From Hormiphora californensis (taxonomy: Eukaryota; Animalia; Ctenophora), in the NCBI GenBank assembly GCA_020137815.1, contig CM035355.1, forward strand, positions 2,356,001 through 2,420,000: a stretch of 64,000 bases of DNA, given 5' to 3'. Position numbers and translations under genes: made by a program. Under the pieces are notes generated by a model. The model was not told the DNA's origin, made no database searches, and worked only from the letters and a program-made list of their open reading frames with translations. Below, one piece after another: positions 17,301 through 47,300 of this stretch (within the stretch, counting starts at the first letter, position 1; each line of letters opens with the position of its first letter).

Positions 17301-20300
17301 ATCTGAGAAGCAATTAAACAAACAAACTGGCTTATTATTATACTTACTGAGTGTGTGTACAGGAGTGTACATAGTAGTTCGGGTTATCATTTCCATCTAC
17401 AGCATGACTGGGTGAACCATTATCATGCATAGTGGTGCTCTGGCTAGTAGGTTTATGCAGTGCAATGTTGTACGCTGATCAGGGGAGAAGGTGAATAGAA
17501 TTTGATCCCTAAAAAACTGGCGAAACAGTGAAAAACAAGTAAAACAGTCATGATAGCGCCGCTGGATACTAAAGGACAAAATTAAATTCTTGGCTACGTA
17601 GTATATAGCAACCCTTGAGTCGCTTGACACTGTTTTCGTGCTCCGCACAATTCAAAGCAGCCCCCTCCGAAGAACAAATAGGGACGTGCTCAAACTATTG
17701 TCTATCAACTCACGTTCACATTCCGATTTATCATTGTTAGGTCGGGTTCCCTTTTTGCACTGCTCACAAGTGATCTGTCCCACGTCCTTATTGATGCTGT
17801 TATCACATGTTTTACATGTGGCTAGACCTGTGACGTCAGCGTACTTTCCAACTGGGCACAGGGTACACTTGGTCGAACCTGTGGGGGAGGGGGTCGGTGA
17901 TGAATATCTTTTCAAATAAAAATAAAAAGATAAAGAGGAGTAGGAAATGGACACTTATTGGATAGAAACATGGAAGGACCGAGGAAAAAAGTTGAAAAGA
18001 GAGAGAGAGAGAGAGAGAGAGAGAGAGAGAGAGAGAGATCCCTCGCCATTACCCATAGTCGTATCGGACCGCTCTCCCGCCATTCGGAGAGCGATACAAC
18101 TATGGGTATTGCCTCGAATTTTCATTTGAAGATGAAATTTACCCATAGTCGTATTTTGGTACCCATAGTTGTATTTGACGGAGAGCGTCGGGAGAGGGTC
18201 GGAGAGCGTCGTTATTTTACCCATAAGTGTATAACTATACAACTATGGGTAAATTTAGGATAATTTTTGGATCAATTGGGGGTTACTTAGAGTTCAATTT
18301 GTGATAACCTCGGAGTTCATTCGGGACCAATTAGGAATAATTTCATTGTCAATTCAGGATCACTTCGGGGTCAAATTAGGATCACTTCGAAGTTGATTTG
18401 GTTTCAATATAAGAATTATTTAAAGATAAATCCAGTGTCATTTTGGTATAACTTCGGGGTCAATTTGGGAGGATCCAGGTTAATTTTTTGGGTCAGAAAA
18501 TTAGTAATTTCGACAACTTTATCAATATCACACAGCGAAACCCAGATTTACCAGCCCTGTTCTACCGTACCGCCGATATACCACGTGGATAGATCTTTCC
18601 TGAAGACAAGGGCAAACTTATACTGATTTGCCGGCACCCTAATTTGTCGGACATTTAGCCCTTCGACATTCGATTTACCGTGCTTTCGATTAGCCATGCA
18701 CATCCCGTTTCCCCGGCTTTTTAAATACCGTGCCATTCTATGTATGTATTAGAGTGTCCCATAAATATTGTCCATCGGACATTTTCAATAGAATCGTATG
18801 TTTTGAACTAAAATATATGGTTCTACGGTATTCCTGACACCCTTGGCGTCATTTCTATATGTCAGGCATTCTACCTGCCCATACAGAAGGGTAGCCATAG
18901 GTGAATTTAGTAGGCCAGTCTTGTAGCGATCTTAAAATTGGCCCGTTCTGTACCTGCCCAATTTCATCTCAGCCACATCTAAGTCTAAGTTCGCAATTTC
19001 GCCAAAATACTGATCGTAAAAACCTAGTGGAACCCAAACGTCCCACTATACGTTTCCTGGTGACATCCTTCAGGCCGGAAGATATTGGGAGATAGGTTGA
19101 GGCCTTGTGAGTACTGAAAAATACATGGCATCAAATGCTGATGCTAATTTTCCATTTTGACCCACTTCTTGTTGACAGACAAACTTCTCAAGTATTGTCC
19201 AGTATATTAGGACCAATTTGTAGTTTTTTGCGACAAACCGGACGCAAATCGGTCCAGTGGATCGCGTGCAACATCCCTAGAAAGAAACCACCCATTTTGG
19301 GGCGGAGCCGACACCTGTATGCAGGGGTTGCCGGTTGCGCCAGGTGTCTATGTCACCAAGAGTTATGCGGTCGTCTAACGTGCTACCTAAAGTTGTATCA
19401 AAATGAAGATACTTAATCTGACCACAAGAGAGCAACTCTAGCCATCTTATTTGACTTGCAAAGAGTACCGATTGGTGAAAAAGTGTGAAACACGAGAGCA
19501 ACAAAAAGCAATAGGTAATATAGATTTACACATAGTATAATGTATGCCTTTTGAATATAGGCCTTCTTCAGGATTAAAACCAAATACAGTCTGGTAGCAC
19601 TAACGAGGACTTCCAGTGACCAGGAAGGGCTTTTCCTGACCAGGAAGTGTCCTCACTTTTATACAACTATGGGTACCATATAAGTTACTAACAGCGCAGT
19701 TACCCATAGTTGTATCACCAATACGACTATGGGTACTCTTCCACTTTGTTTTACCCATAGTCGTATTGACCACATACAACTATGGGTACTTTCGTGGCCG
19801 GTGTACCCATAGTCGTATCAACTACATACAACTATGGGTGGTTTAACCGCAGTGTCCGAAGCACGTGCTATCCAAAGTTGTATCAAGATGACGATCCTTT
19901 CTGATTACAAAACATCCACTCTAACCAAACTTATTTGACTCGCAAAGAGTACCGATTGGTGAAAAAGTGTGAAACACGAGAGCAACAAAAAGCAATAGGT
20001 AATATAGATTTACACATAGTATAATGTATGCCAATTTTGAATATAGGCCTTCTTCAGGATTAAAACCAAATACAGTCTGGTAGCACTAACGAGGACTTCC
20101 AGTGACCAGGAAGGGCTTTTCCTGACCAGGAAGTGTCCTCACTTTTATACAACTATGGGTACCATATAAGTTACTAACAGCGCAGTTACCCATAGTTGTA
20201 TCACCAATACGACTATGGGTACTCTGCCACTTTGTTTTACCCATAGTCGTATTGACCACATACAACTATGGGTACTTTCGTGGCCGGTGTACCCATAGTC

Positions 20301-44300: not shown

Positions 44301-47300
44301 AGGAGTTGAATTGATTGTGTACCACTGGTTATTTTAGGGTCCGTGTGTATTATCAACTTTTACATTTTACAACCATTATACATGTCTTTTGGTACCCAAA
44401 AACGGGAATGACCCGAAATGACGTTAAAAAGCTCCCGAAAACAACCCTATTTGACCCCGAAACGATCCCCATTTGACCCCAAAATGACTCTGATTTGATT
44501 TAGAAATGACCCCGATATGACCAAGACGGTGCTATGTGATACTACAAAAAATAGTTTTATCAATAGTTACAGTAATTATTTCATGTTATTAGTTATTACT
44601 AGTTATTATTGCTTATAAGAAATAGTTTTAACGCCCACAAATGTAATATAATACAACTATGGGTAAAAAGTGCTACATTTACACCTCTCTCCCGCTCCTC
44701 TCCGAGAAATACAGCTATGGGTACCTTCATACAACTATGGGTACACATTTTTGAAGCTCACAAATAAGATCCATTGCCATCGATACGACTATGGGTAATT
44801 TTGGAAAATTACCCATAGGTGTATTTGTGTCTCATACAACTATGGGTAATTTCATACGACTATGGGTAATTCTGATACGACTATGGGTAACGTCGCTGGC
44901 TGGTACCCATAGTCGTATCAGCAATACCCATAGTCGTATCAGCCATACGACTATGGGTAATCGATACAACTATGGGTAAAGGCGAGAGAGAGAGAGAGAG
45001 AGAGAGAGAGAGAGAGAGCGAGAGAGAGAGAGAGAGAGAGAGACATATACGGAGAGAAGAGAGAGAGAGAAGAGAGAGAGAGAGAGAGAGAGAGATTAGA
45101 TCATTTAAAGATCACCGAGATGCCCCGATCTAGCTTCTCGCAGAGAGGAGGATAGATGGAGAGACAGACAGAGATGTAAGCACATGGACACCGCGACCCG
45201 CATGGCTCGGCTTATAACGGAGCGCACACGTGTTTTATGTGCTTGCTCAGCTGTTAAGTGTTAAACTGCTCTCAATTTGTCCTCTAGCCTTTCTGCCTCT
45301 AATTCCTGTGTGTCTTGCCTTTAGATAGTCAGATACAGGGATGGTCAGCAGCATTATTCTCGGACTAATTCTGGCCTTAGCACCAGTACCCTCCCATGGT
45401 GCTGGGCAGACTTATATCCCATTTGCTGATGCCGCACTCTCGTCCATCTATTCGGTATATTGGCCTAAGAGAGCGATCGATGGGAATCTCAAAACCCAGA
45501 CCCACTCTGAGTGCAACAGCCAAGGAAAAGAGATATGGCTAAGATTATGGCTTAGCAGGCCAAGTTTGATCGACCACTTTGTCATCTATCCGACTCACCG
45601 TACGAACGGCTGGTCGAAATTTCACCGGTTTCGAGGAGCCCAGATTTTCATTCAAAATTCGATCAGCGGACAGGAATTTCTGTGTGGTACTCTAACACTT
45701 GATACTACCGCAGCAGCCCATACAATAAAGTGCAACAGAGGGCAGCTAGAAGCTACGGTAGTTGTGATTAGACTGCAAAAGAGTTCTGAAGCTTGCATTC
45801 ATCTCTGGGAGATAGAGGCATTCGGGGATGTACAAGGTGAGATTTATCCGTCAACAGTTATATTACCTAGTTCGCACCCATCTTCACTTCTCACAGAGTA
45901 AAAGCGAAGAAGGGTCGGTTGAAAACTAGACATTTAGACAAGCCGACAGACCCTCATACCCACCAGCTCATTGCCTTGTGCTCTCTCTCTCCGCGCCTCG
46001 GAGGAGAGTTAGAACATAACAACCAGCTCCCATACCCTCTAACACAACCCTTCCAAACTCTACCTCTTAACACAGATATATATTTGATACCAATGATGGT
46101 TTGTGGTACTAAAAACATTATGGGGGAGGATCACCTGCTGTGCCAACCTTAAAGGGCTGGGGAGGATCAGGCATGGAAAATAAAGACAGATCATTCCAAA
46201 TACCAAAATAACTCGTGTTTTCCTCAACCCAGGAATTCAGGGCGCGTATGGCGTTTTGGCCGTGTCCCATGCAACTACGTATTTTGGGGCACACGTGTCA
46301 ATTCATACCTGTGCTGGCAGCGTAGGATCCCTTAGGGCAGGCACTACAGGTGCTTGCTTTGTTGGGGTTGAAGGTTCCGGCACTACACTTGATACACGCG
46401 GTTGCAGCATCATTTGCATAGTTACCAGGGGTACATGCATAGCATGATGACTGAACGGGAGAGAGAAGGGTTAGTGAAATGTTGTTCTTCATCACTTTTT
46501 TTACAATTGGTATCACATTTCATCACACTTATCTATCCTTCACCCTTCCAAGGGGAATGGCTCTGATGCCTAAAGTTAGCTAGATAATTTGACTAAGTCA
46601 AATTATCGGATTTCTAAAGTCAATTTGGAAATCTGATGTTAACTCACACTGCCAGTATTAAAGTTGATTGAGCCACTGGGACACTTGCTGCACCGTGTAG
46701 AACCCTTCCCGGCTGCAAACTGGCCCCGTGGACAAGGGGTACACGAGGTAGAGGCTGTTGAGGACGTGAAACTGCCAATATCACATTGGGTACAGGAGGA
46801 TGCACCGCTACCACCCGCATACGTTCCTGGGAGGGTCGTTAGTAGTCAGAGTAGTAAATCCAAATAAGCCAGATTAATCCCAGATTTTAGAGCGGGTTTA
46901 GCTCTATTTGGCCTATCCCCGCCCCTCCCCATTATTATAGGAACTCAAGGTTCAGTGAAACTGTTCGGTTTTCCATGGCTCAGATAGAGTGTGTCGAAAA
47001 GAGGCACATACCGGCAGTACAGGATTTACAGGATGTCTGGCCAGTTATGTCCATGTAATGTCCCGAGGAGCACTTCTTGCATCCTGACTGGCCAACCTGG
47101 TCCTGATAGCTACCTGTGTGGACAGATTTTATAGTTAGATCTGAGAGACTCCGAGGAAATGTTAAAGATTTTAACACTGTGAGTTACCATGGTAACCACC
47201 TCATCTCGTTACCATGGTAACCACTTTGTTAACCTCTAATTACCTCGTGAACATTCCTCGCACTGGGCGGCTCCCTTTATCTTACTAAAGTGACCCACTG

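Follow-up and report, generated by a model that had tools for sequence, protein, structure and literature searches.

The window analyzed here, 64,000 nucleotides of the ctenophore Hormiphora californensis (assembly GCA_020137815.1, contig CM035355.1, positions 2,356,001 to 2,420,000), holds a host gene with an intron of 28,430 bp, most of which is a block bounded by terminal inverted repeats (TIRs) and flanked by GA microsatellites. What is this block? Our answer, held with moderate confidence, is that the 27-kb block is an insertion and likely one Crypton-type DNA transposon that would move between GA microsatellites and has a single predicted 22-exon chromodomain-zinc finger-recombinase gene. 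We read the element as an unusually large recombinase transposon that resembles CryptonV in targeting microsatellites and in which the three parts are probably fused; it is probably a relative of the Cryptons and not a cargo-carrying animal Starship. An earlier, sequence-only reading had proposed that a single large TIR insertion, with a tyrosine-recombinase-like gene, lies in a GA microsatellite; in view of the ends, the flanking GA tracts, a repeated motif and the host splice, this is still the best reading.

The block spans 18039-44989 (26,951 bp). Its TIRs (18042-18066 and 44962-44986) match at 23 of 25 bases, or at 25 of 28 when extended to 18039 and 44989, and each end touches a GA tract (17998-18038 and 44984-45095, on the same strand). 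Recomputation thus returned the count of the sequence-only reading, which had 25-bp TIRs abutting (GA)n on both sides, and located the tracts. That reading had also named two independent small miniature inverted-repeat transposable elements (MITEs) as a way in which it could fail. Each end has one TIR only, and the outer 13-mer of the TIR occurs at just 2 sites in the whole window, even with up to 2 mismatches; therefore neither end is a complete small element. The first three bases of the left end depart from the GA pattern, and the right end merges into the GA repeat. GC content is 40% inside the block versus 43% and 46% in the flanks.

17998-18038, plus strand: left GA microsatellite, part of the presumed target
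18039-18066, plus strand: left TIR (core 18042-18066)
44962-44989, minus strand: right TIR, with outer bases that are GA repeats and not distinguishable from the target
44990-45095, plus strand: right GA-rich tract

The host gene continues on both sides of the block. This minus-strand cysteine-repeat gene has 45 motif matches in the stretch 54495-46348, none of them separated from the next by more than 923 bp; the following real match lies at 17867, and an isolated match at 29843 stands in a frame closed by stops. As the sequence-only reading had it, host exons splice in phase across the insertion: those at 46309 and 17878 join in frame at GT/AG sites, over an intron of 28,430 bp with the block and 1,479 bp without it. 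Exact removal of the block restores one GA tract and an intron of about 1.5 kb.

46309-46420, minus strand: cysteine-repeat exon of the host gene that precedes the interrupted intron, with its donor at 46308
17655-17878, minus strand: cysteine-repeat exon of the host gene that follows the interrupted intron (Pfam Ephrin_rec_like, E 2e-5)

Inside the block, exons were first assembled manually between GT-AG sites. When both strands were scanned for splice sites, these exons were recovered and one was added (38036-38124); the scan was trained on the hand-built exons and is hence not independent of them. Six chromodomain-side and 16 recombinase-side exons form one open frame, from an ATG at 29997, 12 kb inside the element, to a stop codon at 43694. 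The predicted gene has 22 exons and 21 GT-AG introns and encodes 1,130 amino acids in 3,393 bp of coding sequence spread over 13.7 kb. Alternative acceptors lie upstream of the ATG (29943 and 29995), and the true start may be further upstream. An exon at 41799-41853 was dropped, as it breaks the frame, and acceptor 39415 was replaced by 39411 once exon 38036-38124 was in place. Neither AATAAA nor ATTAAA occurs between the stop codon and the right end (43691-44989).

29997-30059, 30783-30833, 31758-31850, plus strand: predicted exons 1-3
32546-32623, 32714-32796, 33095-33152, plus strand: predicted exons 4-6, with a chromodomain-like segment in exons 5-6
34469-35875, plus strand: predicted exon 7, with an acidic start, 11-amino-acid repeats and two zinc-finger-like motifs
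36457-36506, 36619-36795, 37147-37170, 37409-37499, plus strand: predicted exons 8-11
37615-37721, 38036-38124, 39411-39506, 40044-40123, 40451-40526, plus strand: predicted exons 12-16
41317-41416, 41530-41675, 42013-42140, 42421-42526, 42972-43071, 43505-43694, plus strand: predicted exons 17-22, tyrosine-recombinase-like catalytic domain

The chromodomain and recombinase sides are linked by donor 33152, which joins acceptor 34469 in frame. The sequence-only reading had described a spliced recombinase gene as the last gene and a separate spliced chromodomain gene as an accessory. The exons of both are present; the division into two genes, and with it the accessory gene and the recombinase as last gene, is not supported, as the exons can be read as a single frame. 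Donor 33152 scores 4.2 within a leave-one-out range of 2.9-11.3, and two other needed donors score lower (2.9 and 4.0). Among the 1,594 GT sites in the block, 8.6% score at least as high. It has the sole positive score among the 3 GT sites of its open exon, is in phase, and carries an intronic hexamer identical to that of the host intron's donor. We hold with fair confidence that the chromodomain and recombinase exons are one fused gene.

The predicted protein begins with the chromodomain-like part, followed by the 11-amino-acid repeats, the two zinc fingers and the recombinase. The chromodomain-like segment is weak: with a profile of 10 sequences (8 of 28 pattern loci and 2 others) its score was 10.1 bits, a value reached by 0 of 2000 shuffles, and with a profile of 5 sequences it was 7.5 bits. 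What we take to be the third aromatic cage position of a chromodomain is missing from it, and a PDB search with the two chromodomain halves gave no match. The repeats of exon 7 come from 34 copies of a 33-bp unit (34529-35662). The zinc-finger-like motifs of that exon (first Cys at 35684 and 35840) reached an E value of 0.055 for Pfam zf-BED; in Atlas they matched at 0.92 a cluster with 47% zf-C2H2_12 and at 0.91 one with 98% zf-BED. Exons 8-16 (36457-40526) are a putative linker and core-binding region, to which no database search assigned a domain.

As judged from its sequence, the catalytic part is likely a tyrosine recombinase, a call that we make with good confidence because the boxes at Arg906 and Arg1029 carry signal. 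These arginine boxes (R906 at 41409, R1029 at 42508) each ranked first of about 580 positions against the bacterial profile. An ordered box score was -6.1 in one run, against -35.3 +/- 7.0 in shuffles (0 of 500 as high), and an ordered five-box score was 29.2 in another, against -13.0 +/- 6.4 (0 of 400 as high). Met1026 and Arg1029 replaced an earlier choice of Asp1027 and Arg1030 as the H-x-x-R pair. The other catalytic residues were placed by eye:

K965 (42036), H1059/H1060 (43043/43046) and Y1069 (43506), plus strand: candidate catalytic residues

The ends and the interior share a 15-bp motif. Allowing up to 2 mismatches, the block contains 61 copies (6 at the left end, 43 internal and 12 at the right end); the 37 kb of flank contain none and each of 20 shuffles 0-1. 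Arrays at both ends were noted in the sequence-only reading, which called them mirrored; the arrays stand, and the mirroring is partial (57 bp at 82%). A further feature, not reported there, is an internal block in which a 7-motif cluster recurs in direct and inverted copies that are 95-100% identical and differ by indels and hybrid junctions. Many of its motifs form head-to-head pairs 5-7 bp apart. The switch points at 21556/7, 22237/8 and 24213/4 fall in motif palindromes; others (e.g., 21633/4 and 22944/51) lie outside them. Published systems are cited here and below for the passages covered, and statements about them hold for those passages. Known recombinase sites have an arm-spacer-arm structure, with arms of 11-13 bp and a spacer of 6-8 bp (PMC3212892), a layout close to that of the head-to-head pairs. 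The internal block may have arisen by site-specific recombination, by ordinary template switching between repeats or through an error of assembly. Beyond the window, the 15-mer gave at least 120 single matches in viral contigs; 3 of the 80 that were fetched had a second loose match, and there was no array. The best of these matches was rejected, as it lies inside a phage-like open reading frame (ORF).

18050-18251, no strand: left subterminal array, 6 motif copies
19209-24332, no strand: internal block of direct and inverted duplications, 43 motif copies
44651-44978, no strand: right subterminal array, 12 motif copies

How does such an element reach 27 kb? Introns account for 10,305 of the 26,951 bp, the internal duplication block for 5,124, two nested inserts for 2,752, the coding repeat for 1,134, a 131-bp tandem array for 648, non-repeat exons for 2,259, and the rest for 4,729. 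This accounting suggests that growth came from introns, tandem expansions, the nesting of host repeats and the duplication of a block of motifs, and not from gene capture. Splice-site and six-frame scans of the block found no further multi-exon gene and no ORF long enough for a reverse transcriptase (RT), DDE transposase, polymerase or capsid protein. The sequence-only reading had likewise found no RT/RNase H, DDE transposase, polymerase or capsid genes. Its description of the element as cargo-capable fared less well: the extra length consists of introns, internal duplications and nested repeats, and no cargo gene was found. That the frame is intact over 22 exons although several inserts lie in the introns suggests that the protein has been under selection.

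25762-27133, no strand: nested insert with long inverted ends, apparently MITE-like
27275-28654, no strand: second nested insert with long inverted ends, apparently MITE-like
43715-44362, plus strand: 131-bp tandem array, 4.9 copies with 99% matches, directly after the stop codon

Small inverted-repeat inserts also lie in the introns of the predicted gene (40562-41175, 35950-36210 and 39181-39380), and repeats are shared between introns (37748-37847 with 43357-43455, and 30153-30302 with 36883-37025); none of either kind is in an exon. Rfam returned 0 matches.

CryptonV is among the closest published parallels. Some CryptonV families insert specifically in microsatellites (PMC8869645, citing Kapitonov and Jurka 2012, Repbase Reports 12:2034), and the sequence-only reading, which had pointed to CryptonV-type families, fits that account. 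In the single copy seen, a GA tract stands on both sides of the element. As read here, the element is, like CryptonV, an animal DNA transposon with a tyrosine recombinase as the only enzyme and insertion in microsatellites. Set beside the brief published description of CryptonV, the distinguishing features of the element are its 27 kb, 21 predicted introns, TIRs, motif arrays and chromodomain-like part. By the broad definition of Cryptons, the element has a moderately supported tyrosine recombinase, no RT or other replication enzyme, and, at this one site, a right end that runs into GA and a left end that does not. CryptonA/F/I/S are likewise recombinase-only, and their single target-homologous terminus and lack of a true target-site duplication may be a further likeness. 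In the passages covered, classical Cryptons are without TIRs (PMC3212892, PMC13465315), and animal CryptonA and CryptonI are described as having neither terminal repeats nor a C-terminal domain. An active CryptonF is reported to carry its target motif at its end and to be excised cleanly (bioRxiv 10.1101/2022.05.23.493040).

Starships are giant recombinase elements with a TIR and a target-homologous direct repeat (PMC8092012, PMC10104507, PMC11162782); they carry cargo, and family median lengths start from about 27 kb (PMC11162782). Kirc, the captain of the Starship Enterprise, combines recombinase, zinc finger and chromodomain in one protein (PMC8092012). The element resembles these in the three domain types of its predicted protein, in giant size and in its TIRs. 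The order is reversed, however: as described, Kirc has its DUF3435 recombinase at the N-terminus and its chromodomain at the C-terminus. Starships are fungal, with the captain as first ORF followed by cargo genes, whereas the element has one predicted gene with nothing coding after it, and so lacks the captain-then-cargo arrangement. The 31.7-kb Zisupton indicates that giant DNA transposons exist outside fungi.

Ciliate Tec elements use a DDE transposase, of which none was found in the element. DIRS/Ngaro elements and Polinton-like viruses encode a tyrosine recombinase (PMC4157794, PMC11131425). Tec elements do so too, and some members of these groups have inverted ends. DIRS/Ngaro elements need RT/RNase H, and Polinton-like viruses need capsid and replication genes. 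In the element no RT/RNase H was found, as DIRS/Ngaro would require, and no capsid, packaging ATPase, polymerase or helicase genes, as Polintons and Polinton-like viruses would. The listings of a literature search covering papers, but not Repbase, Dfam or supplements, showed no animal recombinase transposon of such size and layout.

By analogy with an active CryptonF (bioRxiv 10.1101/2022.05.23.493040) and a Starship (PMC10104507), a mechanism can be sketched. Binding of the 15-bp motif copies by the zinc fingers would keep both ends together, as modeled on Cryptons and Starships. The catalytic domain would then excise the element as a circle, whose junction would be two inverted arms around a 6-bp core (44987-44989 plus 18039-18041), and would cut within that core. 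The GA-like right end, or its half of the core, would supply short homology to the (GA)n target, which would leave no true target-site duplication, and the chromodomain would tether the complex to chromatin. A bolder version of these ideas is somewhat unlikely. In it, the element would belong to an animal lineage, so far undescribed, of giant transposons that use a recombinase, target GA microsatellites and parallel Starships independently. Their chromodomain-zinc finger-recombinase protein would act on the ends and also on a cluster of internal lox-like palindromes, driving the inversions and duplications at 19.2-24.3 kb and allowing growth and the carriage of extra DNA.

Several observations weigh against a Crypton-type element with one fused gene. 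A single copy was seen in the 64-kb window, and GA tracts of at least 10 units are common locally (n = 18). CryptonA/F/I/S are described without TIRs, whereas the element has TIRs of 25-28 bp; with TIRs present, it is not filed under these groups. HMMER scores of the recombinase part against two bacterial recombinase profiles were marginal, at 6.1 and 4.5 bits; in each case 3 of 1000 shuffles did as well, and with the first profile the reversed sequence reached 5.3 bits. That profile was built from 28 of 30 fetched domains plus lambda and Cre, and the second from 31 of 50 sequences after redundant or short ones were removed; relatives of lambda and Cre and the XerD loci were left out as too redundant. 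The allowed box spacings were widened beyond the bacterial ones. The boxes placed by eye at Lys965, His1060 and Tyr1069 rank 315, 12 and 193 against the bacterial profile, the optimiser put the last two boxes elsewhere than the by-eye H and Y placement, and Met1026 occupies the usual His position. In exon homologue searches, 0 of 4 and 0 of 5 candidates scored. Donor 33152 is among the three weakest of 21 and is followed one codon later by a stop (33156-33158); an ATTAAA stands at 33229; and a separate first exon could end at an alternative phase-0 donor, 34313, upstream of which a Met stands in an open frame.

The homologue searches used single exons as queries, which makes them weak evidence of absence. 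Eight exon-level pieces of the recombinase gene had no match in Pfam, and hence none to DUF3504 or DUF3435 on these pieces. There was no match in Atlas for one exon, none to the exons in phages and viral contigs, and no integrase family in PHROGs for 16 pieces. Exact look-up of 10 window proteins in a protein collection gave 0 of 10, and the end and internal DNA patterns gave 0 matches in metagenome contigs. Two bacterial Ig-repeat proteins from a representative search were rejected by BLAST against the full model, and a recombinase motif pattern returned 12 loci, none a recombinase. One bacterial genome bin (G067; L277, L281-L283) held four chromodomain matches above the Pfam cut-off, three with identical scores; these are possibly eukaryotic contamination.

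The features of donor 33152 and its surroundings would also fit a two-gene version of the same transposon. In that version the chromodomain gene would be small, stop directly after the chromodomain-like segment and be carried as an accessory, and the recombinase gene would have a first exon of its own. We consider this unlikely. Exon 34469 starts at a strong acceptor and requires an upstream exon, and the best donor of the chromodomain exon is in the right phase (by our estimate about 8% by chance). Kirc has the same domain types fused (PMC8092012), and a separate chromodomain gene would more plausibly be a transposition helper than host cargo.

Another arrangement would separate the gene from the ends: these would belong to a non-autonomous element that depends on an unrelated DDE transposase from another locus, and the recombinase-like gene would be a passenger or nested element. 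Subterminal motif arrays are typical of CACTA-like elements; TIRs and such arrays are not among the features described for classical Cryptons in the passages covered. No copy of the motif lies within 24340-44600, so nothing directly ties motif to gene, and the catalytic residues are not all canonical. Against this, the block contains no DDE gene, no second pair of ends was found within it around the recombinase-like gene, and one end is target-like and the other not, as is described for recombinase elements. On balance, we regard this arrangement as quite unlikely.

It is very improbable that two small repeats landed independently in neighboring GA tracts, or that misassembly accounts for part of the locus (the internal duplications, 99% identical, being most suspect). 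GA tracts are frequent and the internal copies 95-100% identical, but each end has only one TIR and so is not a complete small element, exact removal of the block restores one GA tract and a 1.5-kb intron, and the internal copies differ by indels and hybrid junctions.

Other features of the window lie outside the element. The host cysteine-repeat gene contains a tandem duplication of about 2-2.3 kb, exons and introns included, at 50245-54318 (86-98% identical). In what is left of the host intron (1.5 kb), a single ORF of 186 amino acids (45341-45901, plus strand) lies antisense at 250 bp from the right GA tract; it begins with a hydrophobic stretch resembling a signal peptide and has a weak F5/8 type C match (E 0.004). 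A cationic amino-acid transporter gene (14736-16784, plus strand), mostly one 1.4-kb exon, is antisense to the surrounding minus-strand exons; it had 13 close matches (one identical fragment, the rest at 49-59%), and its named bilaterian relatives are at about 30%. A perfect 226-bp inverted repeat with a 49-bp spacer lies at 6130-6630.

Microsatellite-targeting recombinase transposons of animals are named in Repbase and barely described in the open papers searched. The Crypton-type element favored here offers a seemingly intact copy whose ends are defined, with a repeated motif that is a candidate binding site and with an open frame; circle formation, clean excision and target choice thereby become testable. 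If the reading is true, a recombinase element of an animal can remain coherent even at 27 kb, and chromodomain, zinc finger and recombinase were combined outside fungi as well. As a genome tool, a recombinase able to insert tens of kilobases into GA repeats would also be of interest.

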